64,000 bases of DNA from Candidatus Omnitrophota bacterium (GCA_016783745.1 JADHVZ010000001.1:9447-73446), one strand, 5' to 3'. Positions 39,124 to 61,101 are shown, numbered from the stretch's first letter. Notes: generated from the sequence alone by a model not told the origin. Program-made: numbers and translations.

Positions 39124-39572
39124 TGATCTCTCTGAGCGCGGCTAACATCTCGCGATGTTACTTTTTAAACAGCAGTAAGCTAGAAAGGGTAGTAAGGTTT
39201 ACTCTTAAGTCCCTAGGGATAAAAGACGCGAGTTTATCCATTATTTTTGTAAGCGACAGCCGGATAAAACGGCTTAATAACCTCTACCGCGGTTCTGACA
39301 GGCCTACCGACGTACTGGCGTTTTCAATGCGGGAAGGTAAGCGTCTTTTGGGGAAGCGGCCGGTCATGGGCGATATCGTTATATCCGTTGACCGGGCCAG
39401 AAAGCAGGCGAAAAGATTCGAATCCACCTTTAAAAGAGAAATATATCTTTACATAATTCACGGGATCCTTCATCTTGCCGGATATAATGATGAAAGGCCC
39501 GGAGATAAAAGAGTGATGCGCCGGAAAGAGGATGAGATATTAAATAGATTATGCCGAAAAATAAACTTGTAG
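39123..39572 (+). CDS. ybeY: Endoribonuclease YbeY
   Basis: HGILHLAGYNDE zinc-binding H-x-x-x-H...H motif. 149 aa. Confidence 0.8.
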   Translation: MISLSAANISRCYFLNSSKLERVVRFTLKSLGIKDASLSIIFVSDSRIKRLNNLYRGSDRPTDVLAFSMREGKRLLGKRPVMGDIVISVDRARKQAKRFESTFKREIYLYIIHGILHLAGYNDERPGDKRVMRRKEDEILNRLCRKINL

Positions 39573-40249
39573 ATTCTTTTAATTACGCCATAGAAGGCCT
39601 CCTTTATGTTTTAAGAACTCAGAGAAACATGCGCGTTCATTTTCTTTTCTCCGTATTCATAATACTTCTCGGGATCTATATGGATCTGAAAGCGCTTGAG
39701 ATCATAGCGCTGGTTATGATCATCACCTTTGTGCTGTGCGCTGAAATATTCAACACGGCTATCGAATATACGATAGACCTTATAAGTGAGACAAAGAGCC
39801 CGCTCGCGCGCATTGTAAAGGATATAGGCGCGGGTGCCGTACTTTTATCGACTATCAGCGCGGTAATAGTGGGGTACATAATATTTTCCCGGCACCTGAA
39901 TATTCCATTCGAAAGCGGCGTGTTAAAGATCGCGCAATCACCGTGGCATATGACTTTTATAGCTTTAATAGTGGTCTTAAGCCTTGTGATCGCGGGAAAG
40001 GTGATGTTGCATAGCGGTACACCCTTCAGGGGAGGCATGCCAAGCGGGCACGCGGCCATGGCATTTTCTTTATGGACCGCCATACTTTTTTTAACGTCAA
40101 ACGACGTAGTTGTGATACTGGCTTTTATACTGGCATTTTTTGTAGCGCGAAGCAGAATAGTAAACGCGATACACAATTTTTGGGAGGCATTGAGCGGCGC
40201 GATCATCGGTACACTTACAACGACGCTGATATTTCAGGTATTAAAGTAG
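39551..40249 (+). CDS. Fusion of DgkA-type (diacylglycerol/undecaprenol) kinase with a C-terminal PAP2-like phosphatase domain
   Basis: Residues 1-117 align to DgkA (EIFNTAIEYTIDLIS...ARIVKDIGAGAVLLSTISAVIVGYIIFSRH). The C-terminal ~110 aa carry PAP2 motifs PSGHAAMAF and SRIVNAIHNFWE. Confidence 0.55.
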   Translation: MPKNKLVDSFNYAIEGLLYVLRTQRNMRVHFLFSVFIILLGIYMDLKALEIIALVMIITFVLCAEIFNTAIEYTIDLISETKSPLARIVKDIGAGAVLLSTISAVIVGYIIFSRHLNIPFESGVLKIAQSPWHMTFIALIVVLSLVIAGKVMLHSGTPFRGGMPSGHAAMAFSLWTAILFLTSNDVVVILAFILAFFVARSRIVNAIHNFWEALSGAIIGTLTTTLIFQVLK

Positions 40250-48375: not shown

Positions 48376-48707
48376 CAGAATAGATTTTTTGTTATATTAA
48401 TAGTATTATATAGTTGTGATTTTTTTTGTTCTGAGACCTTGACAAAAGTGAGCTTTGTGGTATACTCTTTACCAAAGTGAAGGTATCTTTTAGTTACGCC
48501 TATACCACGGTAGGTAGCTTTAATCCGGCAAGAAAGGGGGTGAAATCCTTAAGGCTCAAGTTACCTATTAAAGCGTGATATAGATATAGATGTAGACAAA
48601 TTCGGGTCAAGTAACACGCATCTAAGGAATTCATCACAGGCCTGAATTCGAATGATATATTTTAAAATAAATTTAACGTATTAAATCGTAACATGAGGAG
48701 GTATAGT

Positions 48708-50195
48708 ATGAAGTTATTAAGGGGGCTATTTGTATTAGCTCTTGCAATAGCATTCACCATACCTGCACTCGCTGAAACGCAAAGCATCAAGCTAAGCGGC
48801 GATGTTATCGTCAGGCACATTATGCGTGACGATTATGACTTCAATAAGCATGATGATGATGTAGCTGACACAGACGCAAGCTATTTCATGCATAACGCCG
48901 AGATCCAGCTGGATGCCGATCTTACAGACAATGTTTCAGCGACTATCAGGGTGATGAATCAGACAGATTGGAACGTAAGCTATATTACAGAAGGAGCCAA
49001 TACCCACACAGACTATGATCCGCATGCCGTAGTCGGCGCCGGCGGCCTTGACGGCCCGCAGGATAACTACGGTGAGTTCGATGTCATAGTCGACCTCGCG
49101 TATGTGACTTTAAAGGAATTCTTTTTCACTCCTTTGACAGTCAGGATCGGTAAGCAGGATATATGGTTTGGTAAGGGTTTCATCATCGGCGGATTATTCG
49201 ATGACCCGAACGGCCAGATATCAGGTGATGAATGGTCAACCAATAATTCTTTCAAAGCCATAAGAGCGACTTGGGATTATGAGCCTTGGACAATTGACGG
49301 TGTGTTCGCGATGATAGAGGAAAACGAAGTCCAGGCAGATGACGACCAGCAGCTCTACGGTGTAAACGTTGGTATTGACCTGTCAGAATATAAAAATGCG
49401 GAAGTAGAAATGTACTACTGGTACATGATAGACGATGAAATACCGAACTTCATCACCAGCAAGGAAGACCGCATCCACGTCCTTGGTACGCGAGGCAGCT
49501 TTGATCCTCACGAAGACATCACTCTCTTTGGTGAACTCGCGTTACAGGGTGGCACGTACATAGCAAACGCAGTGCAGCCTGAGCCCAAGAAGAGAAATGC
49601 ATGGGCTTGTGATCTTGGCGCTGACCTCAGACTCTGGGAAGATGATTATGCCTGGAGGCCTGTATTCGGAGCCGAGTATATATTCTATTCCGGTAATAAT
49701 GAGCATAACACGACATTAGCCGGTGAGGACTTTAAGGGTTGGAACAGAATGTTCCGCGGAAAGTTAGACAGCGCGATCCACGATCATTATAACGTGTTCT
49801 ATACCGCTGGAATGCCCACAACGGAGAGAGCTGATACAAACCTGCATCAGTTTATCCTGAAGTGGGGTCTTCAGCCAATGGATAACCTTTCGGTTGACGG
49901 GAGATATATACATTTCCGTCTGCATGAAAACGCATGGGGGCCTTCAAACGCTGCCGGTACGATGGGCTATGGCGTACAGGAGAAAGGTGTCGGAAACGAA
50001 GTCGACATAGAGTGGACGTATGAATATACAGAAGACGTCACATTCGGTCTCTTAAGCGCGTGGTTCTGGTCCGGAGATTACTACTGGACTCCTGAAGATA
50101 CAGACAGCACAGCGGCTGTAGTTGCCGGAGCGAACTCTGGTAGTTCAAAGAGCGTTGCAAGAGAAGTTGTTGCTACTTGCAAAGTCTCGTTCTAG
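48708..50195 (+). CDS. Secreted putative outer-membrane beta-barrel protein (start at MKLLRG after GGAGG; the ORF track begins at 48693)
   Basis: Signal peptide (LAIAFTIPALA), an alternating hydrophobic pattern, an aromatic-rich sequence, and a terminal ...CKVSF with C-terminal Phe typical of OM beta-barrels. Confidence 0.45.
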   Translation: MKLLRGLFVLALAIAFTIPALAETQSIKLSGDVIVRHIMRDDYDFNKHDDDVADTDASYFMHNAEIQLDADLTDNVSATIRVMNQTDWNVSYITEGANTHTDYDPHAVVGAGGLDGPQDNYGEFDVIVDLAYVTLKEFFFTPLTVRIGKQDIWFGKGFIIGGLFDDPNGQISGDEWSTNNSFKAIRATWDYEPWTIDGVFAMIEENEVQADDDQQLYGVNVGIDLSEYKNAEVEMYYWYMIDDEIPNFITSKEDRIHVLGTRGSFDPHEDITLFGELALQGGTYIANAVQPEPKKRNAWACDLGADLRLWEDDYAWRPVFGAEYIFYSGNNEHNTTLAGEDFKGWNRMFRGKLDSAIHDHYNVFYTAGMPTTERADTNLHQFILKWGLQPMDNLSVDGRYIHFRLHENAWGPSNAAGTMGYGVQEKGVGNEVDIEWTYEYTEDVTFGLLSAWFWSGDYYWTPEDTDSTAAVVAGANSGSSKSVAREVVATCKVSF

Positions 50196-50213
50196 TTTAG
50201 TTTGATCTGAACG

Positions 50214-50260
50214 CAAAAAAGCCCGGCATTTCTAACGAAGTGCCGGGTTTTTTTGTTTTT
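50214..50260 (+). terminator. Rho-independent terminator (GCCCGGCA ... TGCCGGGC stem with T-run)
   Basis: AAAAAAGCCCGGCATTTCTAACGAAGTGCCGGGTTTTTTTGTTTTT sits directly after the OMP stop, with an A-run upstream and a T-run downstream. Confidence 0.75.
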
Positions 50261-50261
50261 C

Positions 50262-50290
50262 TTGACAACCATTTAGTAATTATGTATACT
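50262..50290 (+). promoter_or_regulatory. Sigma-70-like promoter TTGACA-17-TATACT
   Basis: Exact -35 hexamer and a near-consensus -10, about 40 nt upstream of the 50330 start. Confidence 0.45.
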
Positions 50291-50329
50291 TTACTAAAAT
50301 AAATCGATCAATAAAACCGGAGGTGAGGC

Positions 50330-50647
50330 ATGGCGGAGGATAAAGTAGTACAGGAAGGCAAGATATTCGCGGTAATCGGATACCTTGGTATCTTATGCCT
50401 TATACCTTTATTATTCAAGAAGGAGAACAAATTCGCCCTGTTCCACGGCAAACAAGGGCTGGTTATCTTTATAGGTGAGGTAGCCCTGGGCATTATAAGC
50501 GTAGTGCCGTTCCTGGGCTGGCTGGTGGGATTTTTCGGTGTTTTGATCTTCGGCATCCTTTCGCTAGTAGGTATTGTGCAGGTTTTAATGGGCAATTACT
50601 GGAGAGTGCCTTTAGTCGCTGATTTAGCCGATAAGTTTAATATATAG
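50330..50647 (+). CDS. DUF4870-like small membrane protein
   Basis: KFALFHGKQGL followed by two or three TM helices resembles the DUF4870 family. Confidence 0.45.
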   Translation: MAEDKVVQEGKIFAVIGYLGILCLIPLLFKKENKFALFHGKQGLVIFIGEVALGIISVVPFLGWLVGFFGVLIFGILSLVGIVQVLMGNYWRVPLVADLADKFNI

Positions 50648-50663
50648 TTTTGAGTATCTAACA

Positions 50664-50708
50664 ATAGGGGACAGACACTTTTAGACATAAAAGTGTCTGT
50701 CCCCTATT
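50664..50708. repeat. Simple hairpin copy of the palindromic element (AATAGGGGACAGACACTTTTAGACATAAAAGTGTCTGTCCCCTATT)
   Basis: Read directly: 19-bp perfect arms with a 7-nt loop, between the DUF4870 gene and the radical SAM gene. Confidence 0.8.
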
Positions 50709-50710
50709 CC

Positions 50711-51643
50711 ATGAAAATGAAAAAATCCAAAATAGACATTTACAAATCGATGAAGTTCTGTACTATTTGCCCCAGGAAGTGCGGGGTGGATAGGACTGCG
50801 GGTAAAAGCGGATTTTGTAAGGCCGGCAGCAAAATAGAGGTCTACTCTGCCGATCTCCATTTTGGGGAAGAGCCGCCGATCTCCGGCACCAATGGTTCCG
50901 GGGCCATCTTTTTTAATCACTGTAACCTGTCCTGCGCGTATTGCCAGAATTATAGATTCAGTCAATTGAAGGATGGTAAAGAGTTCGAAATAAGCTCATT
51001 TGTCGATCTGATGCTATCCCTTGAGAAGAAGGGAGCGCATAACATCAATCTCGTTACACCTACGCATTACGCTGTCCAGATCGCAAATGCCGTGATCGAG
51101 GCAAGACGTAACGGCCTGAAAGTGCCTATTGTATATAATTCAAGCGGCTATGAGAAGGTAGATGCCCTTAAGATGCTTGATGGGCTGGTTGATATATATT
51201 TAGTTGATATGCGCTATGCTGATGACGGACATGCGATGAAATACTCTTCCTGCGGTAACTACGTTGAATCAAATGAACAAGCCGTAAAGGAAATGTACAG
51301 GCAGGTCGGCACGCTAAAGCTATCCGGATCCGGCATAGCTGAGAAGGGCATAATAATAAGGCATCTTATATTGCCGAATGATATCAGCGGTTCCGAAAAG
51401 ATCTTCAGATTCATAGCGAATCAAGTCGATACCAACACCTATATATCACTCATGAGCCAATACTATCCTGCCAACAGGGCATCCACACACAGAGAGCTTA
51501 AGCGCGGCATAAATAAATCGGAATACGATAATGCAGTGCGCCTCCTATATAAGTATAACCTTAATCAAGGCTGGGTGCAGGAGTTCACGGGAGGCTTTGT
51601 TGATTCAGGCTTTGCAGGCACCAATATTGAACCCGATCTCTAA
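50711..51643 (+). CDS. Radical SAM enzyme, PflX/YjjW-like (pyruvate formate-lyase-activating-enzyme-related). Start placed after the hairpin.
   Basis: N-terminal CTICPRKCGVDRTAGKSGFCKAG, the radical SAM CNLSCAYCQN (CxxxCxxC), and a glycine-rich SAM-binding segment. The ORF-track start at 50693 would lie inside the hairpin. Confidence 0.65.
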   Translation: MKMKKSKIDIYKSMKFCTICPRKCGVDRTAGKSGFCKAGSKIEVYSADLHFGEEPPISGTNGSGAIFFNHCNLSCAYCQNYRFSQLKDGKEFEISSFVDLMLSLEKKGAHNINLVTPTHYAVQIANAVIEARRNGLKVPIVYNSSGYEKVDALKMLDGLVDIYLVDMRYADDGHAMKYSSCGNYVESNEQAVKEMYRQVGTLKLSGSGIAEKGIIIRHLILPNDISGSEKIFRFIANQVDTNTYISLMSQYYPANRASTHRELKRGINKSEYDNAVRLLYKYNLNQGWVQEFTGGFVDSGFAGTNIEPDL

Positions 51644-51669: not shown

Positions 51670-51878
51670 AATTCGCGCGAAGCACGAATTTGTCCTGAGA
51701 ATACGACAAAGAGGAGTATTCGAAGGGCCACAATTCGCGCGAAGCACGAATTTGTCCTGAGAATACGACAAAGAGGAGTATTCGAAGGGCCACAATTCGC
51801 GCGAAGCACGAATTTGTCCTGAGAATACGACAAAGAGGAGTATTCGAAGGGCCACAAATTTTTGCACGCTCGAATTTG
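51670..51878. repeat. 62-bp tandem repeat x3.3, each unit containing two short hairpins, degenerate last unit
   Basis: Units begin at about 51670, 51732 and 51794 and are identical. The fourth unit is diverged (CACAAATTTTTGCACGCTCGAATTTG). Each unit contains AATTCG..CGAATT and GAATAC..GTATTC inverted repeats. Confidence 0.85.
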
Positions 51879-52008
51879 ACTTTTTTTAAAATTGCAGGTA
51901 TACTTCATATTACCTTGTCATATCTTGTATTAATATATATAAAATATAACAATTCGTAGAAAACTATACTTGATTTATTTGAATCTTTGATAATATGGAG
52001 GTATAACG

Positions 52009-52212
52009 GTGAAGAATAGTGTGATGACTGTCCGCGAAGTTGCCAGGTACCTCAGGATGAAGCCGGTCACTATATATAAACATGCCCAGGAGGGCAAGTT
52101 GCCGGCTTTTAAGGTAGGTTCGTCATGGCGCTTCAAGAAAAAGACCATAGACGGATGGATCGCCGGACAGGAAAAGGAAGAACTCGAGAAATTGGATCTC
52201 GCGGTAAAATAA
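52009..52212 (+). CDS. Excisionase-family (Xis/AlpA-like, MerR-superfamily) HTH DNA-binding protein
   Basis: VREVARYLRMKPVTIYKHAQEGKLPAFKVGSSWRFKKKTIDGWI matches the excisionase-family DNA-binding domain signature (TIGR01764-like). Confidence 0.6.
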   Translation: MKNSVMTVREVARYLRMKPVTIYKHAQEGKLPAFKVGSSWRFKKKTIDGWIAGQEKEELEKLDLAVK

Positions 52213-52263
52213 TGCTGAGCTAAACAACTGCTCAGCTTTTTTACTTTCATACAAAGGTTTAAC

Positions 52264-53511
52264 ATGAGTAAACGTATAGTTATAACCGGGATAGGTGTAC
52301 TAGCCCCGAACGGAATAGGTAAGGATGAATTCTGGAACGCGTTGGAGCAGGCGAGATCCGGAATAAAGCCGGTTACATTATTCGATACATCCACTACAAG
52401 GTCAAAACTGGCCGGGGAGATATCAGATTTTGATCCTGTTCAGATCCTGGGAAAGAAAGGCCTGCGTACTCAGGATAGGAGTACAAAGCTGGTCAATTCC
52501 GCCGCGAAACTCGCGCTGGACGATGCCGGATTCGAATATCCGATACCTGAAGATGAAGCGGCTAAATTTGGCGTGGCCCTGGGCTCCACGATGGGAAGCG
52601 TATGGTCAATAAGTGAATTTGACAAAGTAGCGCTTCGTGAAGGACCGGGGGCGGTAAATCCGGCGCTGTTTTCCAATACAGTCATGAATTCTCCGGCAAG
52701 CCAGATCTCGATCAGATTTAACATAAAGGGCTTTAACGCGACCATCTCCACAGGTTTTACTTCCAGTGCAGACGCGATAAGCTACGCTTATAATCTTATG
52801 AGATTCTACGACTATAAAGTTGTTTTAGCGGGCGGAGTTGAGGAGCTATGTGAACAAACATTTAAGGGATTTCATAAAATAGGCCATTTAGCCGGTTCAA
52901 GAGGATCCAAACCGGAATTGAATTGCCCTTTTGACAAGAGGCGAAACGGTATTGTTGTTGGTGAAGGTTCTGCTATTTTTATTTTGGAGGATCTGGAACA
53001 TGCCCGATCAAGAGGAGCCAGAATATATGCTGAAATTTTAGGCTATGGTACATCTTTTGACGTGAAAAGCAGGAATATATATAACCCTAAAGCGGAGGGC
53101 GCGGCGGAAGCTATTAAATTTGCTTTAGAGGACTCAAAGACAAAACCGGAAGACATTGACTACATATCCGCAAGCGCGAATTCCACACTAGATTGCGATG
53201 TTATGGAGACAAGGGCCGTAAAAAAAGCGTGCGGCGAGCATGCGAAAGAGATACCGATAAGCAGCATTAAGAGTATGATAGGAGAGACTTTTTCGGCATC
53301 AGGCGCTATGAATGTTGCCGCAAGCCTTGGTGTATTTGAAAAACACTTTTTACCGCCGACGATAAATTATGAGAAGCCAGACAAGCGCTGTGACCTGGAT
53401 TTTGTGCCCAATAAGGCGCGAAGGAAAAATATTAATATAGCACTTGTTAATGCGTTTAGCCCTACGGGAAATAATACAACTTTAGTATTAGCAAGAAGCA
53501 AGGAGAATTAA
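52264..53511 (+). CDS. Ketosynthase-fold protein lacking the Cys-His-His catalytic triad (chain-length-factor / KS-beta-like)
   Basis: Thiolase/KAS fold throughout, but the active-site TACATG position reads STGFTSS, HGTGT reads SANSTL, and GHS/GHT reads GET. Confidence 0.7.
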   Translation: MSKRIVITGIGVLAPNGIGKDEFWNALEQARSGIKPVTLFDTSTTRSKLAGEISDFDPVQILGKKGLRTQDRSTKLVNSAAKLALDDAGFEYPIPEDEAAKFGVALGSTMGSVWSISEFDKVALREGPGAVNPALFSNTVMNSPASQISIRFNIKGFNATISTGFTSSADAISYAYNLMRFYDYKVVLAGGVEELCEQTFKGFHKIGHLAGSRGSKPELNCPFDKRRNGIVVGEGSAIFILEDLEHARSRGARIYAEILGYGTSFDVKSRNIYNPKAEGAAEAIKFALEDSKTKPEDIDYISASANSTLDCDVMETRAVKKACGEHAKEIPISSIKSMIGETFSASGAMNVAASLGVFEKHFLPPTINYEKPDKRCDLDFVPNKARRKNINIALVNAFSPTGNNTTLVLARSKEN

Positions 53512-53512
53512 T

Positions 53513-54256
53513 ATGCTGTTAAAAGATAAGGTAGCGATAATAAGCGGCGGATCAAGGGGCATAGGCAGGGCCGTGGCGCTGGAACTGGCAAATGAGGGAG
53601 CCGATATAGCTTTCAATTATCTAAAGAGCGAAGACAGGGCTCTTGAAGTTAAGAAGGAAATAGAATCAAAGGGAAGAAAAGCGCTTATCTTTAAGTCTGA
53701 CGTGAAGAACTTAGCTCAAATGAAGAATATGGTGAACGAGACGAAAGAGAAATTTGGTAGACTGGATATTATTGTGAACAACGCGGGGATATTACGGGAT
53801 AAAGCATTAATGCTGATGGGGGTAGAGGACTGGGAGGATGTTATTTCAACCAATTTATCCGGCGCTTTTAACCTTATAAAAGCCGCAATAGTCACGTTAA
53901 TGAAGGAAAAACAGGGTAATATCATTAATATAACATCAGTAGCCGGAATAAAAGGCATGCCGAGACAGGTAAATTATTCTGCCAGTAAAGCGGGACTGGT
54001 GGGCATGACCAAGGCTTTAGCTAAGGAAGTTGCCTCGTATAATATAAGGGTGAATGCCATAGCGCCGGGTTATATAGATACCGACATGGTAGGCGGATTG
54101 AAGGAAAACCATAAAACAGAGTTAATGAAAAGGATCCCCTTAAATAGATTTGGGACCCCTGATGAGGTAGCAAAGGTAGTGACTTTTTTAGCATCAGAAC
54201 GATCTAAATATATAACAGGGCAAGTAATATCAATTGATGGCGGATTGGCCATATAA
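53513..54256 (+). CDS. fabG: 3-oxoacyl-ACP reductase (FabG-type SDR ketoreductase)
   Basis: Cofactor motif GGSRGIGRA, NNAG, and catalytic S...YSASKAG (YxxxK). Confidence 0.8.
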   Translation: MLLKDKVAIISGGSRGIGRAVALELANEGADIAFNYLKSEDRALEVKKEIESKGRKALIFKSDVKNLAQMKNMVNETKEKFGRLDIIVNNAGILRDKALMLMGVEDWEDVISTNLSGAFNLIKAAIVTLMKEKQGNIINITSVAGIKGMPRQVNYSASKAGLVGMTKALAKEVASYNIRVNAIAPGYIDTDMVGGLKENHKTELMKRIPLNRFGTPDEVAKVVTFLASERSKYITGQVISIDGGLAI

Positions 54257-54269
54257 ACGGAGGTATAGT

Positions 54270-54521
54270 ATGCCTGAAATCTACTCCGAAACTTTAGAAA
54301 AAGATCTGCGGGCTATAGTTGCCGATATTGTCGAGATCGACGAGGGGAATATTACATCTGAGGCTAACTTCGTGGAAGATCTGGGGATGGATTCTATGAT
54401 GGCCCTGGAGATCCTGGCTACTGTGGAGAAAAAGTATAAGCTTAAGATCCCCGAAGAAAATCTTACAAAGATGACAAGCTTAAAGCAAGTAGTCGAGCTT
54501 GTTAACGGTTTGTTAAAATAA
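54270..54521 (+). CDS. Acyl carrier protein (start at MPEIY after GGAGG; the ORF track starts at 54234, overlapping fabG)
   Basis: Phosphopantetheine attachment motif DLGMDSMMALEI (the DSL/DSM Ser). Confidence 0.75.
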   Translation: MPEIYSETLEKDLRAIVADIVEIDEGNITSEANFVEDLGMDSMMALEILATVEKKYKLKIPEENLTKMTSLKQVVELVNGLLK

Positions 54522-54535
54522 AAAGTTAAAATATT

Positions 54536-55756
54536 ATGAATAAGCGTGTAGTAATAACCGGATTGGGAGTTATATCATCGATTGGAATCGGCAAAGAGGA
54601 TTTCTGGAATAATCTTATTGCCGGGAAATCCGGCATAAGCGATGTGACGACTTTCGATACCTCTAAATATGATAACCACAAAGGCGGCGAAGTAAAAGAT
54701 TTTAATCCATCAGATTTTATTTCTCGTAAGCATATAGCTGAGATGGGAAGGGCATCACAATTTGCAGTTGCAGCTTCGCAATTAGCACTTGATGATGCCA
54801 AGATGCACACCTTAGAAGCAAAAAAGGCTCGAGCCGGGGTGATAGTTGGCACAACCATGGCAGATGCTCAGGCCATAGAACAAATAGACAAGTATTGGAT
54901 TGATAAAAGTGAAGATGAAGTATGGGCAACAAATATTGTTAAATATCCAAGCAATGTTATAGCCGATAATGTAGGATACTATTTGGGGACACAGGGACCA
55001 AATTATGTGCTTCCTAATGCTTGTGCTGCAGGTAATTATTCTATAGGTTATTCTTTTGATCTTATAAGAGCTGGAAAGACTACCATTATGCTGGCTGGTG
55101 GTTCTGAGCAATTTTCAAGAATTACTTTTACTGGATTTAGCCGTCTATTTGCGATGTCTCCTGATCGGTGTCAACCCTTTGACAAGAATCGAAAGGGCAT
55201 GATTGTAGGCGAGGGAGCTGGCATATTGGTTTTAGAGGAATTAGAGCATGCAAAGAGAAGGGGTGCTACAATGCATGCCGAAGTACTGGGATACGGGTTA
55301 AGCTGCGATGCCCACCATATGACTGCGCCAAGTGTAAAAGGCATAACTTCGGTTTTGGAAAATGCTATGAAATTTTCAGATATAAGAAAAAATGATGTTG
55401 AATTTATCTGTACACATGGTACTGGGACTCCCGCCAATGATAGGGCTGAATGCCATGCCATGAAAAATGTTTTTGGAGAAAAATTCAAAGAGATTCCTGT
55501 AAATTCAATAAAGTCTATGCTTGGCCATACCATGGGAGCAGCAAGTGCGATAGAGTCAATAAGTACAATTTTGGCAATAAAAAATGGTATCATTCCACCA
55601 ACGATAAATTATGAGATATCCGATCCTGAGTGTGAGTCAGTCGACTGCGTAGCAAATGAAGCTCGTGTGAAAAAAATAAAAATAGCGCTAAATAATGCTT
55701 TAGCTTTCGGCGGCAATAACGCATGCATAGTTTTTAAAAAAATACAAAATTTATAA
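54536..55756 (+). CDS. Beta-ketoacyl-ACP synthase (active KS, FabF/KS-alpha-like)
   Basis: Catalytic Cys in PNACAAGN, His in THGTGTPANDRAE, and Lys/His in NSIKSMLGHTMGAAS. Confidence 0.8.
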   Translation: MNKRVVITGLGVISSIGIGKEDFWNNLIAGKSGISDVTTFDTSKYDNHKGGEVKDFNPSDFISRKHIAEMGRASQFAVAASQLALDDAKMHTLEAKKARAGVIVGTTMADAQAIEQIDKYWIDKSEDEVWATNIVKYPSNVIADNVGYYLGTQGPNYVLPNACAAGNYSIGYSFDLIRAGKTTIMLAGGSEQFSRITFTGFSRLFAMSPDRCQPFDKNRKGMIVGEGAGILVLEELEHAKRRGATMHAEVLGYGLSCDAHHMTAPSVKGITSVLENAMKFSDIRKNDVEFICTHGTGTPANDRAECHAMKNVFGEKFKEIPVNSIKSMLGHTMGAASAIESISTILAIKNGIIPPTINYEISDPECESVDCVANEARVKKIKIALNNALAFGGNNACIVFKKIQNL

Positions 55757-55757
55757 A

Positions 55758-56879
55758 ATGCCTAAATTTGCTTTTATAGCCCATCCCATAACGACAGAAC
55801 ATCTATATGAAATTTACAGCGGTTTTGCTGGTAAAATACTATCTTTTTTCCCGAAAAATATGCTTAAAGAATTATTGCTTAGACTTCCGCCTGTTAGTTT
55901 TGGAGTATGTAAAAATGTAAAATCATCAGAAGGAAAAACTATAGAAGGAGAAGGATTCCTTTTTCTTTTATTGCCAGAGCAGATAGCGATGCTCGACGAG
56001 AAATTTGTTCTAGACAAGATAGCCGCCACTATTAAAAAAGCCAAAGAGTCAGGTGCGCAGATTGCCGCGCTGGGCGGTTTCGCATCGGTAGTTGGTAATG
56101 AAGGAGAGAAGTTAGCCAAGCAAGTTAATGGTATAGCGATTACAAGCGGTAACACATGTACAGCAGCCTTGACTATACAAGGCATTCTTAAAGCAGCTTT
56201 AATTTTAGATGTGAAAATAGAAAATACTCATATGACAGTTATAGGAGCAACAGGTGATATAGGTAGTATTTGCTCAAAGATTTTTGCCAAAAAAGTAAAA
56301 AAATTAAATATAGTAGCAAGAAGGCAGGATCGATTATCCAATTTTGCTAACGCATTAAGAAGGAGTGGAAGCGCAGAAGTAGAGCTATTTAAACGTACAT
56401 CCGATGCCATAAAAGGCGTTGATATTATTCTGAGCACGACTAGTTCATTGACAACTTTGATCGAACCAGAATATTTAAAACCTGGAGCAATTGTTTGCGA
56501 TGTTTCTTTGCCTGCAAATATTCCCAAGGAAATAGTAAATATAAGGAAGGATATATTGGTATTTGAGGGTGGCCTGGCGAAATTGCCTTATTCAAAGGAG
56601 ATCAAAGGCAAAAATTGGAACAGATTACTGCCTGGTGATAGGACGTATGGTTGCTTGGCAGAGGCAATGCTTTTGTCGTTTGAGAATAGACTGGAGAACT
56701 ATTCGATTGCAAGGGGAAATATAACTGAAGAAAATATACAAGAAATATGTGGCTTATTAAAAAAACATTCTTTTGAAGTATCCGATTTTTTCTGTGGGTA
56801 TAAGTTTTTCACAGAAAAGGACTTGGAAGAGATAAAGAAATGTAAAGTGAAGGGAAATAATTATGCAGGGGTCCTTTAA
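55758..56879 (+). CDS. Acyl-ACP reductase (AAR) homolog, the fatty-aldehyde-forming long-chain acyl-[ACP] reductase family
   Basis: Collinear matches to cyanobacterial AAR from memory: FAFIAHP (FGLIGHL), AALGGFASVVG (SALGGFTSII), TSGNTCTA (TTGNTHTA), VIGATGDIGS (VVGATGDIGS), ARRQDRL (ARNQERL), and the catalytic-Cys region YGCLAEAMLLSFE (FACFAEAMLLEFE). Confidence 0.6.
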   Translation: MPKFAFIAHPITTEHLYEIYSGFAGKILSFFPKNMLKELLLRLPPVSFGVCKNVKSSEGKTIEGEGFLFLLLPEQIAMLDEKFVLDKIAATIKKAKESGAQIAALGGFASVVGNEGEKLAKQVNGIAITSGNTCTAALTIQGILKAALILDVKIENTHMTVIGATGDIGSICSKIFAKKVKKLNIVARRQDRLSNFANALRRSGSAEVELFKRTSDAIKGVDIILSTTSSLTTLIEPEYLKPGAIVCDVSLPANIPKEIVNIRKDILVFEGGLAKLPYSKEIKGKNWNRLLPGDRTYGCLAEAMLLSFENRLENYSIARGNITEENIQEICGLLKKHSFEVSDFFCGYKFFTEKDLEEIKKCKVKGNNYAGVL

Positions 56880-59004
56880 TCCATTTTTCATTCCATCCTT
56901 TATTGCATCGCTATTACTACTTTTTTTGGGAGTGTTTGTTTATTCGAGGAATAAAAAATCGTTAGTTAATGTTTTATTCTCGTTAGAATGTTTCGTGTCT
57001 TTTATATGGCAGTTTTGCTATGCTATGATGTATTTATTTTCCAATGATGAACAGCTAGCAGCATTTTGGATGAAAATAGGTTATGTGGGCGTAATCTACA
57101 TTTCAGTTTTTTATTACCATTTTATTATAGAATTTTTTGAAAGAAAGAAGGAAAGGATCATTGTCTATATTTCATACGGCATTGCTACCGTATTTGTTTT
57201 TTTTCATCTTACAACCAATTTGTTTACAAACGGAGTAATAAAATATTTTTGGGGGTACTATCCACGAGCATCTGTCATACATCCGTTTTTTTTGGTGTTT
57301 TTTATAGGTCTAATATGTTTAATCATAACTCATTCATTTATGGGGTTCTTGAATAGAGAGAAACTTTTTCACGATAGGAGAAAAGAGCAGGTCAAATATC
57401 TTTTTTGGGCATATTTTTTGTACGCACCAGCTTGTGTCGACTATATAGCAAATTATAATATTACGTTCTATCCGTTTGGCTACGTATTTTCAACAGCGTT
57501 TCTTGGTATTATCGCTTATGCTATTGTCAAACATCAACTTATGAATATTGAAGTCATTATACGCCGCGCGGTCGTGTTTACAGGATTATTTGCCGCGGCA
57601 TACGGAGTATTTGCTTTCTTTACATCACTGACTCAAGATGTGTTTCAGAATATTACCGGTGGAAATAGATGGGCGGTGTTTGTTCCTTCTATATTGCTAA
57701 TTGTGTTGGCATTGCGGCCACTGGAGAATTTTTTGGTCAGGATAACAGACAGGTTCCTATTTCAGAAAAAATATGATTATAGAGAATTACTACGCGCTCT
57801 TTCGCACGAAGTCATAACTATTATGGATCTCAACAAACTTACGAAGAGGATCGTTGATGATCTCGTAAATATAATGAGGGTTGAGAGCTGCGCTATCATG
57901 TTGTATGACAAGAATAAAGATGTTTATGATATTATTGCGGCCAGGGGGATAAAGGGCGGAAGTATATCATTCTCAAGGGATAACCAGACCATCACATTTC
58001 TTAAGACAGCTCATTTACCTATCAAGAAAAATGAGCACATTGACAAGATGGGTGAGAAGGGAACTATAAAGGAGGACATGAAGAAACTTGGCGCTGAATT
58101 TATCTTGCCTCTTATAGTGCATGATGAGCTCTTAGGCCTCATCAGCCTGGGCATGAAAAAGTCAGGAGAGGAATACAACCAGGACGATATTGCTATATTG
58201 GAATCTCTGACAGGGACAGCGTCGATCGCTATTAGTAACGCTCAGTATGTTGTCAATACTATGGAGCTTGAAGCGGAGGCGGCGCAAAGAGAGAAGATGG
58301 CCGTTGTCGGTACTCTGGCGGCAGGAATAAATCATGAGATATGTAATCCTTTAGGAATAGCGAGGGGGCAGTGCGAAGTCTACATATTAAATCAGAGAGA
58401 AGGGCTGTATGTCAATAAGCCCAAGGATGAGCAGATCGCCGAAGCCATGAAAGTCATGGAAAAAGTATTGCGTGAAACTGACAGGGCAACCGCGATCACT
58501 AAGAAGCTTTCAAGCTTTGCCAAACCGTCTAAAGGTGAGATATCGGAAAATGTTAAAATAGAGGAAGAGCTGGAAGAGGTCATAGCTTTGGTGGATCACG
58601 AGCTTAAACTGGGAAAGATAGATCTGAACTTGAATGTCCCGGATGATCTACCTCCTATAAGGTGTGACCGTAAACAATTACAGCAAGTATTATTTAACAT
58701 CATAAGAAACGCGGGCCAGGCCATAGGCGGCAAAGGAACGATTACTGTAGACATCAAGACCATTGAAGATAAGATCAGAATTCACATAAAGGACACAGGT
58801 CACGGTATATCTAAGGATAAGCTATCCGAGATCTTCAATCCATTCTATACTACTAAAGACCCGGGCAAGGGTACCGGCCTCGGGCTTTTTATAGTGCGTC
58901 AGCTTGTGGAAAGGAATAAGGGCAGGATCATAGTAGGCAGTGAAGTCGGAAAAGGCACCACATTTACATTGGAATTTCCGGCTACAGAGAGGGTGAAGTT
59001 ATGA
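56863..59004 (+). CDS. Membrane sensor histidine kinase (N-terminal 7TM sensor, GAF, HisKA, HATPase)
   Basis: Seven hydrophobic helices in the first ~230 aa, a GAF-like middle, H-box AAGINHEICNPLG, and N/G boxes (DTGHGISKD, GKGTGLGLFIV). It overlaps the AAR gene end by 17 nt. Confidence 0.75.
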   Translation: MQGSFNPFFIPSFIASLLLLFLGVFVYSRNKKSLVNVLFSLECFVSFIWQFCYAMMYLFSNDEQLAAFWMKIGYVGVIYISVFYYHFIIEFFERKKERIIVYISYGIATVFVFFHLTTNLFTNGVIKYFWGYYPRASVIHPFFLVFFIGLICLIITHSFMGFLNREKLFHDRRKEQVKYLFWAYFLYAPACVDYIANYNITFYPFGYVFSTAFLGIIAYAIVKHQLMNIEVIIRRAVVFTGLFAAAYGVFAFFTSLTQDVFQNITGGNRWAVFVPSILLIVLALRPLENFLVRITDRFLFQKKYDYRELLRALSHEVITIMDLNKLTKRIVDDLVNIMRVESCAIMLYDKNKDVYDIIAARGIKGGSISFSRDNQTITFLKTAHLPIKKNEHIDKMGEKGTIKEDMKKLGAEFILPLIVHDELLGLISLGMKKSGEEYNQDDIAILESLTGTASIAISNAQYVVNTMELEAEAAQREKMAVVGTLAAGINHEICNPLGIARGQCEVYILNQREGLYVNKPKDEQIAEAMKVMEKVLRETDRATAITKKLSSFAKPSKGEISENVKIEEELEEVIALVDHELKLGKIDLNLNVPDDLPPIRCDRKQLQQVLFNIIRNAGQAIGGKGTITVDIKTIEDKIRIHIKDTGHGISKDKLSEIFNPFYTTKDPGKGTGLGLFIVRQLVERNKGRIIVGSEVGKGTTFTLEFPATERVKL

Positions 59005-59375
59005 AGAGGCCGAAGATATTGACTATAGACGATGAGATGGGTTTTGTTGATATGATAAAAAACTATTTTTCTCTGCGCGGATATGACGTATTCACAGCTC
59101 TGAGAGGCGCTGCCGGATTGTATATCATCGAACAGGAAAAGCCTGATGTGGTTTTAATCGATTTCAAGATGCCGGAAATAGACGGGGATCAGATCTTCCG
59201 GCAGATGAAGAAGATCCACCCTGAAGGAAAGGCTATTATGATAACCGCGTTCAGGGATGAGGGGGGGACTGAAAAGAGATTATTAAATATGGGGGTTTAC
59301 GCTTATTTTGAAAAACCGATCACATCCATGAAGGATCTTGAGGCAACGATAAAAAATGCGGTTACACAAAAATAG
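59001..59375 (+). CDS. Stand-alone receiver-domain response regulator
   Basis: ILTIDDE, VVLIDFKMP (Asp phospho-acceptor) and IMITAF. No output domain. Start overlaps the kinase stop. Confidence 0.7.
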   Translation: MKRPKILTIDDEMGFVDMIKNYFSLRGYDVFTALRGAAGLYIIEQEKPDVVLIDFKMPEIDGDQIFRQMKKIHPEGKAIMITAFRDEGGTEKRLLNMGVYAYFEKPITSMKDLEATIKNAVTQK

Positions 59376-59380
59376 AGGCG

Positions 59381-59767
59381 GTGATTAAAATGATCAAAGT
59401 TTTAGTGGTAGATGATGAGCAGGAGATATGTAATTTTGTAAGGGATTTTTTCAAGGAAAGAGGCATTGAGGTCATAACCGCCTTAAACGGGGAAGAAGCT
59501 CTTGAGATGATAAAGAACGAGGAAGAGCTTACAGTGCTTCTTGATATCAGGATGCCTAAAATGGGCGGTATGGAGGCGTTACGCCGCATAAAAAAAGAAA
59601 AACCGCGCTTCAAGGTGATCATGGTCACATGCATCGATGACATTGAGAAGATGGAAGAGGCTAAGAGATGCGGCGCCGAGGCTTACTTAACAAAACCTTT
59701 AGTCCTTAAAGAGCTGCTTAAAGTTGTCATGAATAATGTGCCGGGTAATGACAAGAGCGGAAAATGA
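59381..59767 (+). CDS. Stand-alone receiver-domain response regulator
   Basis: VLVVDDE, VLLDIRMPKMGG and IMVT. No output domain. Confidence 0.7.
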   Translation: MIKMIKVLVVDDEQEICNFVRDFFKERGIEVITALNGEEALEMIKNEEELTVLLDIRMPKMGGMEALRRIKKEKPRFKVIMVTCIDDIEKMEEAKRCGAEAYLTKPLVLKELLKVVMNNVPGNDKSGK

Positions 59768-61101
59768 AGAAGGATAAGAAAAATAAAAATAATTGGAAAG
59801 AAATACAGAATCAGCTTATCAAAAAATGCCTGGATGTCAAGCCGCATTTTACGCCTTCCGGCCGCTTGAAGACCACAGATAAGCTCAATTACAGGGAGGT
59901 GATCGAGAAGGCGTCGCGAAGCATGATCCGCTTTAAGAAACCTACGCGCCTTATACGCATGATAGTGCGCATAATAGCTGAGCAGGTAAGGGTTCTTCAT
60001 ACAGGGGTCTTATTATATAGAGAAAAGAATAATTCCTATGTCCTTATAGACAGCAAAGGTGAGGAAGGGAAGAGGCTTCCCATCGGATATGTAAGACTAC
60101 CTTTAGATAGTCCGCTGATAACCGCATTTATGGAAAAAAAGTCATTTTTGATAGACTCACACGGCGCGCTTCTTCTCGAAAAGATAACGAAAACGCTTAA
60201 TGACGCGGATTTATTGAAAAAACAGATGGGGATGGAGCACAAGATCAAGAGATTAAAGTCTGAAATGGATATATTACGTTCTGAAGTCTGTATCCCGGCA
60301 TACTACAAAAGAAAGTTACTTGGAATATTAATTCTGGGGCCGAAGCTTTCCGGAGAAAAATATAATGATGATGAGATAGGCTTTTTCGCTACTTTAGCGA
60401 ATGACGTGGCGATGGCGATCACGAATTCCCAGCTTATAACAAGCCTTCAATCAAAAGTAAAAGAGATAGGTGTCCTTTATGAAAAGGAAAGACGGCTTTT
60501 TATCCACACCTCAATAGCCCTGGCCGCCGCAATCGACGCGAGAGACCCGTATACTCACGGTCATACGTCGCGTGTTACCCACTATTCTCTTAAAATAGCG
60601 GATGAGCTAAAGCAGGCTCCTGAAATAATGGATTATGAGAATTTCAGGGAGACGCTTCACATAGCGTCTCTTCTGCATGATATCGGTAAAATAGGGGTGC
60701 GGGACAATATACTGAATAAAGCCGATGCGCTTACCGGCGAGGAATACATAGAAGTCAAAAAGCACGCGGACATCGGCGCTGCCATATTAAGCCCGATAAA
60801 AGAACTGGGCGGTATCATAGAGATTGTCAGGGCCCATCATGAAAGATTTGACGGCACCGGATATCCTGGCGGCTTAGAGGCGGATGAGATCCCGTTTCCT
60901 TCGCGGATAATCTCCGTAGCGGATGTTTTTGACACGGTAACCACAGACCGTCCTTATAGAAAGAAAATACCGGACGCGGATGCCGTAAAAGAAATCGAGA
61001 AAAATTCAGGAACACAGTTTGATCCGCTGGTCGTACAGGCATTTGTCGATGCGTACAATAGGGGGAAGGAATTTTTAAACCCGACTTATTCCGGCTACTG
61101 A
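59764..61101 (+). CDS. GAF plus HD-GYP domain protein (putative c-di-GMP phosphodiesterase)
   Basis: HD motif LHDIGKIGV and HHERFDGTGYPGG (the GYP signature). The N-terminal half is GAF-like. Confidence 0.75.
   Translation: MKKDKKNKNNWKEIQNQLIKKCLDVKPHFTPSGRLKTTDKLNYREVIEKASRSMIRFKKPTRLIRMIVRIIAEQVRVLHTGVLLYREKNNSYVLIDSKGEEGKRLPIGYVRLPLDSPLITAFMEKKSFLIDSHGALLLEKITKTLNDADLLKKQMGMEHKIKRLKSEMDILRSEVCIPAYYKRKLLGILILGPKLSGEKYNDDEIGFFATLANDVAMAITNSQLITSLQSKVKEIGVLYEKERRLFIHTSIALAAAIDARDPYTHGHTSRVTHYSLKIADELKQAPEIMDYENFRETLHIASLLHDIGKIGVRDNILNKADALTGEEYIEVKKHADIGAAILSPIKELGGIIEIVRAHHERFDGTGYPGGLEADEIPFPSRIISVADVFDTVTTDRPYRKKIPDADAVKEIEKNSGTQFDPLVVQAFVDAYNRGKEFLNPTYSGY

Follow-up and report, generated by a model that had tools for sequence, protein, structure and literature searches.

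The gene at positions 55,758 to 56,879 of a 64,000-nucleotide stretch of DNA from a Candidatus Omnitrophota bacterium (GCA_016783745.1, JADHVZ010000001.1:9447-73446; the whole stretch is termed the window below) encodes a protein resembling AAR, the cyanobacterial reductase of acyl-ACP (ACP, acyl carrier protein), and is the sixth gene of a tightly packed operon of ten (52009-61101; Table 1). The operon opens with a DNA-binding protein of the HTH_17 type, continues with a ketosynthase (KS) that has lost its catalytic residues, a FabG-type ketoreductase (KR), an ACP and an active KS and, beyond the reductase, closes with a sensor histidine kinase, two receiver proteins and a GAF/HD-GYP protein, adjacent genes being separated throughout by gaps of 1-51 nt or overlapping. 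A single nucleotide lies between the KS stop codon and the reductase ATG. What is new here is a stand-alone AAR-superfamily reductase within an operon of anammox-type KS, chain-length factor (CLF) and ACP genes that is hard-wired to a two-component and cyclic di-GMP (c-di-GMP) module, and no description of this arrangement of reductase, kinase and fatty acid genes was found in the searchable literature. A previous interpretation of the gene, hereafter the sequence-only reading, saw an AAR fold recruited as the release step of a dedicated elongation system; it overlooked the loss of the catalytic residues in one KS, the resemblance of the partners to anammox proteins and the coupling to the kinase.

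Table 1. Genes of the operon and the promoter-like site ahead of it, in window coordinates
Feature	Position	Strand	Length (aa)	Basis and remarks
Promoter-like site TTGACT-17-TATACT	51876..51904	+		Consensus scan 10/12; about 100 nt upstream of the first gene
HTH_17 (excisionase/MerR-like) DNA-binding protein, first gene	52009..52212	+	67	PF12728, 58.6 bits
Inactive KS, CLF-like, amxFabFmut type	52264..53511	+	415	Pfam KS domains
3-Oxoacyl-ACP reductase (FabG-type KR)	53513..54256	+	247	TIGR01830, 313.5 bits, above the cut-off of 297.75
ACP, amxACP type	54270..54521	+	83	Pfam PP-binding; motif DLGMDSMM; gene call from L088, another assembly of the same region
Active KS, amxFabF2 type	54536..55756	+	406	Cys-His-His intact (alignment A1)
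AAR-superfamily thioester reductase-like protein, stand-alone	55758..56879	+	373	ATG-to-stop open reading frame (ORF); Cys299, GATGDIGS 163-170, R188
Sensor histidine kinase, HisKA_7TM-GAF-HisKA-HATPase_c	56863..59004	+	713	Pfam; H-box 'NHEICNPL' and G-box visible
Receiver-only response regulator	59001..59375	+	124	Response_reg, 73 bits; 4-nt overlap with the kinase gene
Second receiver-only response regulator	59381..59767	+	128	Response_reg, 96.6 bits
GAF and HD-GYP protein, predicted c-di-GMP phosphodiesterase, last operon gene	59764..61101	+	445	HD_5, 124 bits; HD; GAF

Among the NCBIfam hidden Markov models (HMMs), the reductase is matched best by the PigE model NF053554 (E 1.1e-51; 176 bits, below the cut-off of 850, over model positions 1-356 only), followed by the AAR equivalog TIGR04058 (EC 1.2.1.80; E 4.6e-36; 124.8 bits, the cut-off of 449.7 not being reached), with glutamyl-tRNA reductase (1e-11) and shikimate dehydrogenase (3e-5) ranking after both, and a sequence search of the PDB likewise placed PigE (4PPM; 1.4e-28) and AAR (6JZQ; 7.7e-24) on top. 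The predicted structure (AF2/AlphaFold, 16 homologues; pLDDT 86, pTM 0.88) presents the three-domain AAR fold. Its top Foldseek matches are the AAR structures 6JZY, 6JZU, 6JZZ and 6JZQ (E 6e-24 to 8e-21; TM scores of 0.74-0.87 overall and of 0.78-0.87 for the first three), the carmabin TAD domain comes next, and other Rossmann-fold proteins, shikimate dehydrogenase among them, score below 0.5. The nucleophile C294 of AAR and its NADPH loop, 162-GATGDIG-168 (PMC7089970), both have counterparts, namely C299 within 'YGCLAEAMLL', which aligns to 'FACFAEAMLL' of AAR, and GATGDIGS at residues 163-170. Across an alignment of 89 family members that were drawn from five contexts and include the proven cyanobacterial enzymes, Cys299, His9, Thr129/Gly131/Asn132, the G-x-T-G-x-I-G loop, Asp248, Pro252 and Glu302 are invariant or nearly so; Arg188, the counterpart of the Arg in the AAR motif 'TARNQER', is conserved in most members, and its retention fits the use of NADPH. 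As far as sequence can tell, the conserved residues fit an NADPH-dependent, Cys-mediated ping-pong thioester reductase, and the product of 55758-56879 is very probably an AAR-superfamily enzyme that works with this Cys and NADPH. The sequence-only reading had named the AAR family from the same catalytic-Cys region and GATGDIGS site, an identification that the HMM, PDB, Foldseek and residue comparisons bear out.

The family is large, comprising 2540 clusters at 50% identity for E<=1e-3, 1776 for E<=1e-10 and 300 for E<=1e-30, and the closest relatives bearing a source name (45-65% identity) come nearly all from metagenome-assembled genomes (MAGs) of Candidatus Omnitrophota. A scan of species-representative genomes with a 16-sequence family alignment revealed relatives (related loci are designated here by L and a number) in Omnitrophota, Planctomycetota, Actinomycetota, Armatimonadota, Eremiobacterota, Gemmatimonadota, Cyanobacteria and Pseudomonas, as well as in Bacillota, including the cultured Alkaliphilus and Natronincola. 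In a neighbour-joining tree (100 bootstraps), 14 cyanobacterial AARs form a clade in 100/100 bootstraps from which the reductase of the window, at about 26-32% identity to cyanobacterial AARs, is excluded. It falls in clade A, composed of stand-alone Omnitrophota proteins (71% bootstrap); the tree also holds clade B, whose members bear an N-terminal SRPBCC/polyketide-cyclase-like extension of ~160 aa (97% bootstrap), and a fourth group of mixed Firmicutes, Actinobacteria and Armatimonadota. Judged by tree and identity, the reductase is a member of the AAR superfamily and not an orthologue of cyanobacterial AAR, and the family placement given by the sequence-only reading holds at that broader level.

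Precedents outside cyanobacteria have been described: PigE's N-terminal domain, by which a thioester is reduced prior to transamination (PMC8341465), a COG5322 domain of KecF that operates within a type II KS/CLF system (PMC6498172), and TAD, which displays an AAR-like fold with the same Cys (bioRxiv 2024.10.28.620694). With these descriptions and a family of this size, an AAR-like protein outside cyanobacteria is unsurprising by itself, and the novelty attached to an AAR fold as a release step had been overstated. The logic of the family appears to be that an aldehyde is formed from a carrier-bound acyl group and handed to a partner specific to the lineage.

The genes upstream of the reductase that would supply this acyl group resemble those of anammox bacteria. 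The product of 52264-53511 has its triad destroyed (Cys->Phe, His->Ser, His->Glu in alignment A1), as do its orthologues in L001 and L002, and its best PDB match is 9S5H chain C, which itself carries Cys->Val (380 bits, vs 276 for canonical FabF). The active KS is closest to chain B of the same entry (482 bits, vs 327 for the ishigamide KS 6KXD and 323 for Bacillus subtilis FabF); at 428.8 it does not reach the fabF equivalog cut-off of 493.75, and it passes that of the PRK07314 subfamily. A dead KS beside an intact one points to a KS/CLF-like pair. The ACP finds its best PDB matches in amxACP (7QV0_D, 66.8; 7AUF, 62.9; 9S5I_E, 62.6 bits; canonical ACPs at most 49) and falls below the AcpP equivalog TIGR00517 (57.5 bits vs a cut-off of 70.45). 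The margin of anammox over canonical proteins thus amounts to 100-160 bits for the KS and CLF and to ~17 bits for the ACP. Identities to the Escherichia coli proteins are intermediate (FabF 38.7%; FabG 41.6%; AcpP 30%). From their composition and a preprint (bioRxiv 10.64898/2026.05.19.726425), whose text does not list the PDB codes, we infer that 9S5H and 9S5I represent the amxFabF2/amxFabFmut heterodimer of Brocadia, the former free of amxACP and the latter bound to it. The entry 7QV0 is the Scalindua amxFabZ-amxACP complex, in which amxFabZ takes amxACP and not canonical ACP (PMC10139942); the anammox paralogues constitute a dedicated system alongside canonical fatty acid synthesis (PMC10139942; bioRxiv 10.64898/2026.05.19.726425); and amxFabF2/amxFabFmut is a functional KS/CLF-like heterodimer that prefers C6-C8 (bioRxiv 10.64898/2026.05.19.726425). 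A short chain in the window system is hinted at solely by homology to this C6-C8-preferring pair.

That the KS, CLF and ACP best match anammox paralogues supports a dedicated supply system, as the sequence-only reading had proposed, and does not prove it. Its KS, ACP and KR neighbours are confirmed by Pfam and NCBIfam, with the correction that the upstream 'KS' lacks the Cys-His-His triad. A KS or CLF lies within 6.5 kb of the reductase in 14 of the 16 loci of the window's clade, and an HTH_17 orthologue precedes the cluster in relatives. The clusters of relatives also hold FabZ, a phytoene-desaturase/amine-oxidase-like gene and nitroreductases, which is probably why mining tools flag 'ladderane' clusters in Omnitrophota (PMC9902471); amxFabZ, the phytoene-dehydrogenase homologue and a B12 radical SAM protein were all missing from 52009-61101. 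The promoter-like site of Table 1 is a pattern match only, the total of such sites in the region not exceeding the shuffled expectation. As a separate observation, G+C content is 0.36-0.39 over 54000-58000 of the window (KS, reductase and the first half of the kinase gene) vs 0.42-0.49 in most other 2-kb bins, so that a foreign origin is possible, or these may simply be AT-rich genes.

Downstream, the kinase gene overlaps the 3' end of the reductase gene by 17 nt, its ATG (56863) standing behind a Shine-Dalgarno-like AAGGGA, and the kinase, receiver and HD-GYP genes overlap or lie no more than 5 nt apart. The last protein retains the motifs 'LLHDIGK' and 'HHERFDGTGYPGG', with HD and HHERxDGxGYP intact. 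Immediately downstream of the reductase, an orthologous kinase with the seven-transmembrane (7TM) sensor domain is found in 7/16 loci of clade A and 14/23 of clade B, figures that rise to 13/16 and 19/23, respectively, within 6.5 kb; no such kinase was found in the 27 loci of other groups or in the 13 cyanobacterial loci. Stop/start overlaps of 1-35 nt join reductase and kinase in 17 of 21 pairs, and the pairing recurs across both Omnitrophota and Planctomycetota. The reductase gene is thus, to judge by its layout, translationally coupled to the 7TM histidine kinase, and the kinase-receiver-HD-GYP module is the most widely conserved partner of the reductase. Domain fusions within the family (HTH_17-PilZ-SRPBCC-AAR in P0161, PilZ-SRPBCC-AAR and AAR-GAF) tie the enzyme to c-di-GMP-type signalling in a second way.

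The reciprocal search, in which the 7TM and GAF region of the kinase was compared to metagenome contigs, yielded 55 non-redundant loci with enough upstream sequence. Acyl or lipid genes occur within 6 kb upstream on the same strand in 47 of these, and downstream of the kinase receivers are present in 30/35 and HD-GYP in 24/35. The gene directly upstream of the kinase is amine-oxidase/phytoene-desaturase-like in 14 loci, this being the last gene in the common order CLF-AAR-KR-ACP-KS-desaturase; it is AAR-like in 5, a 4HBT thioesterase after an ACP in 4, a nitroreductase in 4, an aldehyde dehydrogenase (ALDH), a KS or a methyltransferase in 3 each and an AMP-ligase in 2, with single cases of a PilZ-HMG-CoA-reductase-like protein, a short-chain dehydrogenase/reductase (SDR) resembling the FAR reductase domain and a GMC oxidoreductase, and 14 other or unknown. 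The ALDH-type gene is preceded by a FAR-like SDR in L121, the sole locus checked. Examples in which an enzyme stands directly upstream of the orthologous 7TM kinase and behind an HTH_17 gene are L117 (4340-5992), L123 (4613-5974), L127 (4082-5146) and L092 (5226-5998), where it is a PilZ-HMG-CoA-reductase-like fusion, a methyltransferase, or an ACP with a 4HBT thioesterase. The constant part of these loci is therefore the HTH_17 gene at one end and the kinase-receiver-receiver-HD-GYP set at the other, and the variable part is an acyl-carrier-based cassette that, in a substantial minority of loci, ends in an enzyme releasing or modifying acyl thioesters, the AAR-like gene being one of several. 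In L006 (60-3500), a CBASS-like set (patatin, SMODS/DncV-like nucleotidyltransferase and E2-CBASS) is encoded just upstream of a reduced HTH_17-RR-ACP-AAR-kinase cassette.

Partners that consume aldehydes in known AAR-like systems were sought with phmmer. A query for the aldehyde-deformylating oxygenase (ADO) matched the gene directly upstream of AAR in all 13 cyanobacterial loci used as a positive control, and found no match within the 64 kb window or in any Omnitrophota locus, so that the absence of an ADO-like gene nearby, claimed earlier, stands. A class III aminotransferase was likewise not found in the window with the L046 protein as query, and the reductase itself is a single domain with no aminotransferase fusion. 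Pfam identified only housekeeping and unrelated genes among most other window ORFs of at least 120 aa. A kinase, and not an aldehyde-consuming enzyme, is encoded beside the reductase in the window's clade. The placement of the reductase in one operon with anammox-type fatty acid genes and a sensor kinase suggests that a fatty aldehyde serves in signalling or in specialised lipids and not in alkane synthesis. A split form of PigE was also observed, with a class III aminotransferase directly upstream of an AAR-like gene in L046 (543-3054) and in L037, L038, L049, L069 and L033, loci of cultured Firmicutes (Natronincola, Alkaliphilus and relatives).

In the mechanism favoured here, the KS/CLF heterodimer, KR and ACP would build an acyl chain on the operon's ACP, as orthology to anammox Cluster I suggests, with FabD, a dehydratase and an enoyl reductase supplied in trans. 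The acyl group would then move from the ACP onto Cys299 in a ping-pong course like that of AAR, and the acyl-enzyme would be reduced with NADPH to release a free fatty aldehyde. Neither ADO nor an aminotransferase would receive this aldehyde, or an alcohol or other derivative of it, and the product would instead be linked in function to the 7TM kinase, translated together with the reductase, and to the c-di-GMP module, perhaps as the cue sensed by the kinase, in a signal-synthase/receptor cassette, or less specifically as the output of a pathway controlled by c-di-GMP. The whole of this reading, in which the operon's ACP gives up its acyl group as an aldehyde at the expense of NADPH and this release is coupled in function to c-di-GMP signalling, has somewhat less than an even chance. 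Among its parts, functional coupling of some kind to the kinase module is likely, interpreting as it does a synteny and domain fusions that are plain from the gene maps; an acyl group on the operon's ACP is the rather probable substrate, an aldehyde the rather probable product, and the reduction of the one to the other is about as probable. That the product is the ligand of the kinase is considerably more doubtful. In favour of such a signal cassette are the translational coupling, the variety of acyl-releasing enzymes upstream of the same kinase and the fusions to sensory domains, together with the occurrence of FadL in one relative and the preference that the anammox KS/CLF shows for short chains. 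A still more speculative generalization would make the AAR-like gene an interchangeable 'release enzyme' of an undescribed and widespread cassette class in Omnitrophota, Planctomycetota and relatives, each cassette holding an HTH_17 regulator, a private ACP with or without anammox-type KS/CLF, an acyl off-loading or modifying enzyme and a 7TM/GAF kinase. The off-loading product would be an aldehyde, acid, alcohol or methyl ester, which the kinase would sense and report via the two receivers to the HD-GYP c-di-GMP phosphodiesterase.

Several observations weigh against the favoured reading, and some of them form the substance of its rivals. Bootstrap support for the window's clade is only moderate; a dehydratase, an enoyl reductase, a malonyl transferase and an aldehyde-using enzyme are all absent from the window operon; and AAR occurs within the fetched 6 kb in just 12 of the 55 kinase-seeded loci, which makes it one option for the cassette and not an obligatory partner. 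The aldehyde, or its alcohol, might instead be a building block of ether-type or other unusual membrane lipids, with the kinase and HD-GYP protein merely regulating the remodelling of envelope lipids, a parallel to the reduction step of myxobacterial ElbD or to whatever supplies the ladderane alcohols of anammox bacteria. The KS, CLF and ACP are orthologous to anammox Cluster I, which is thought to make membrane-lipid precursors; relatives possess a phytoene-desaturase-like enzyme and FabZ, as does Cluster I, and the cluster adjoins plsX-fabH-fabD in L001, L007, L052 and L066. A PlsC-type acyltransferase precedes the reductase in 11 of 26 clade B loci (one sub-clade), and in L039 (Planctomycetia) the AAR-like gene is followed by an AMP-ligase-ACP-acyltransferase protein that is ElbD-like without a reductase domain, a type known from anaerobes as lacking the FAR domain (PMC9131029); these partners point to lipid synthesis rather than signalling. 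An acyltransferase is, however, near the reductase in none of the 16 loci of the window's clade, an ether-forming enzyme is absent from the window, and thioesterase, methyltransferase and ALDH genes upstream of the same kinase are hard to square with one bulk lipid. Fusions to PilZ, GAF and HTH domains would also be unusual for housekeeping lipid enzymes, and the anammox KS/CLF prefers C6-C8; on balance the lipid route is a possible but minority account, about as probable as the signal cassette. Less likely again is a tap on primary fatty acid synthesis, in which the KR, ACP and KS would be the sole FabG, AcpP and FabF of the cell and the enzyme would divert long-chain acyl-ACP to aldehyde as cyanobacterial AAR does. 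The gene order in L007 (rpmF-plsX-fabH-fabD-HTH_17-CLF-KR-ACP-KS-AAR) is that of a canonical fab operon, in L066 the reductase and kinase follow plsX-fabH-fabZ-KS, and such synteny means that the reductase may draw on primary fatty acid synthesis; plsX-fabH-fabD stands without fabG-acpP-fabF in L001, 7 kb from the cluster. The KR and KS exceed FabG equivalog and PRK07314 subfamily cut-offs, respectively, and a second fab set was not found in the 64 kb window. The ACP nevertheless fails AcpP models and is only distantly identical to that of E. coli, it is closer, like the KS and CLF, to anammox-specific paralogues than to canonical proteins, and canonical type II synthesis has no catalytically dead KS partner; moreover, the L001 cluster is without an active KS, so that this genome must encode one elsewhere. 

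Two further alternatives deny the reductase its proposed chemistry. The Cys might be used for acyl transfer or TAD-like chemistry, or the protein might be a sensor subunit reporting acyl-ACP or NADPH status to the kinase. The chemistry of the superfamily is not uniform, given that PigE reductase activity was detected in lysates only (PMC8341465) and that TAD, a structural relative, binds NAD beside the same Cys and may not reduce at all, reduction not having been demonstrable (bioRxiv 2024.10.28.620694); the HTH_17, PilZ and GAF fusions and the translational coupling to the kinase would suit a sensory role. A non-reductase is nonetheless very improbable, as catalytic and NADPH-loop residues are invariant in the 89 sequences with the proven cyanobacterial enzymes among them, and fold and sequence are nearer to AAR and PigE than to TAD. 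TAD-like chemistry in particular was rejected: the defining Asp (Val249 occupies the position of TAD Asp2170) and the features of NAD specificity are absent, the NADPH-type Arg188 is kept and the protein is stand-alone. Finally, databases list homologues as 'shikimate dehydrogenase' or 'predicted amino acid dehydrogenase', which is explained by Pfam, whose matches (Shikimate_DH, 42 bits; OCD_Mu_crystall; Semialdhyde_dh) cover only the nucleotide-binding Rossmann part at residues 151-263. The chance that these names are correct is negligible, since the aroE models reach only ~22 bits (21.9 for TIGR00507, vs a cut-off of 200.2) and the TM scores to shikimate dehydrogenase stay well short of those for AAR. 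The sequence-only reading had itself named clustering with such a Rossmann family as the outcome that would speak against it, and HMM scores and fold point the other way.

The enzyme itself extends a known theme, that of the AAR fold as a general off-loading reductase for carrier proteins, of which cyanobacterial alkane synthesis is only one derived use. The anammox-type KS/CLF/ACP trio, usually discussed only for ladderanes, here accompanies a defined release enzyme in an organism that is not an anammox bacterium, which offers a tractable route to the product of the trio, and aldehyde and alcohol production would profit from a reductase that stands alone and may accept acyl-ACPs of short or medium length. 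The tie to the kinase and c-di-GMP, together with the varied acyl enzymes upstream, provides a concrete hypothesis, namely that lipid-derived signals operate in phyla whose biology has hardly been studied by experiment, and opens a way to the ligand of HisKA_7TM, an uncharacterised sensor domain. Were the cassette class described above real, it would be a new family of systems by which largely uncultured, ultra-small bacteria signal to one another or to themselves with lipid-derived compounds, and it would provide the first ligand class for HisKA_7TM.

Other features of the family were observed in the related loci. In L073 (9249-11059), from a Chitinophagaceae MAG, an AAR-like gene branches beside the cyanobacterial clade (82% bootstrap), and the ORF before it gives a weak 35-bit match to ADO, so that an AAR-ADO-like pair may exist in Bacteroidota. 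A second, divergent AAR-like paralogue lies in tandem with or near the main copy in L021 (7860-8903), L063 (7619-8695), L053 (8962-11002) and L060 (9365-12046), all of these being Omnitrophota or Planctomycetota loci; in L021 a B12-binding radical SAM gene directly follows the reductase. L014 (VIKE01000106.1), binned as Rhodocyclaceae, holds a full Omnitrophota-type cluster with a reductase 44% identical to that of the window, by misbinning or horizontal transfer.

Upstream of the operon, the window encodes an alginate-export/porin-like outer-membrane protein (48693-50195), a small membrane protein (50330-50647) and a radical SAM protein (50693-51643); the gene lists of relatives show nothing that connects the genes of 48693-51643 with it. 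The radical SAM gene lies outside the operon and was rejected as part of a ladderane-like cluster, being activase-like, having no B12 domain, standing behind a repeat-filled spacer and not figuring among the genes listed upstream in relatives. That spacer, which separates the radical SAM gene from the promoter-like site, contains three perfect head-to-tail copies of a 62-bp unit (51670-51855), each with a short inverted repeat (AATTCGCGCGAAGCACGAATT), found nowhere else in the window; two assemblies of the same region, L088 and L090, end at a point ~200 nt upstream of the HTH_17 gene, as though the repeat had interrupted assembly. Elsewhere in the window, 24447-29303 (+) encodes a DnaE (DNA polymerase III alpha) of 1618 aa with a LAGLIDADG homing-endonuclease intein at about residues 759-1203, and one ORF, 39551-40249 (+), has both a diacylglycerol kinase domain of the prokaryotic type and a PAP2 phosphatase domain.

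Compared with known systems, the reductase shares with cyanobacterial AAR (Synechococcus elongatus; 6JZQ/6JZY) a common fold, the catalytic Cys, the GATGDIG loop and the H7, T-x-G-N, D-x-x-x-P and E positions, from which ping-pong thioester reduction is predicted. It differs in having no ADO partner, being accompanied instead by KS/CLF/KR/ACP and the kinase. Residue Y247 of AAR, which lines the acyl tunnel and is required for ADO binding (PMC7089970), corresponds to Leu251 in the window reductase and to Ile, Leu or Met across its clade, and the basic helix by which AAR docks ADO has, as read from the alignment, a largely acidic or neutral counterpart. PigE's N-terminal domain and the C-terminal COG5322 domain of KecF, of the prodigiosin and koreenceine pathways, are AAR-like domains for which conversion of a thioester to an aldehyde has been proposed or shown in a specialised pathway (PMC8341465, PMC6498172). 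KecF operates with KS/CLF pairs, ACP and KRs (PMC6498172), as the window protein would. In both proteins the domain is joined to a class III aminotransferase, which converts the aldehyde to an amine, whereas the window protein is stand-alone.

Anammox Cluster I comprises amxACP, amxFabZ, amxFabF2, amxFabFmut, a phytoene-dehydrogenase homologue and a B12 radical SAM protein. Among solved structures, its proteins are the best matches of the ACP, KS and dead KS of the window, which is without FabZ, the desaturase homologue and the B12 radical SAM protein; an AAR-like reductase, a KR, a histidine kinase and HD-GYP are not among the Cluster I genes listed in the text consulted of three anammox papers. 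The TAD of CarI (9E4S) is the second-best structural match (TM ~0.74) and its same central Cys is reached by a carrier-protein thioester, but it is NAD-specific, forms the last domain of nonribosomal peptide synthetase modules and is only 17-18% identical to the window protein, in which the D-V-S-L-P loop aligns with the region where TAD carries its invariant Asp beside the nicotinamide. Myxobacterial ElbD (ligase-ACP-reductase-acyltransferase) offers a functional analogy for those clade B relatives that have an AAR-like gene with an acyltransferase or ElbD-like protein; its reductase fold is unrelated (FAR/SDR) and the window operon has no acyltransferase.

The operon as a whole invites comparison to fatty-acid-derived signal systems with an adjacent sensor kinase, an analogy drawn from gene architecture and not one of membership; their enzymes and sensor domains are unrelated to those of the window, where the HD-GYP protein has a GAF domain and not a receiver. 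In PhcB-PhcS and CqsA-CqsS, a synthase gene is placed beside that of a sensor kinase, an architecture like that of the window operon. In the DSF system RpfF/RpfB-RpfC-RpfG, an acyl-derived synthase gene likewise stands beside that of a membrane sensor kinase with HD-GYP output, and it is this architecture only that the window operon shares with it (PMC4159695).

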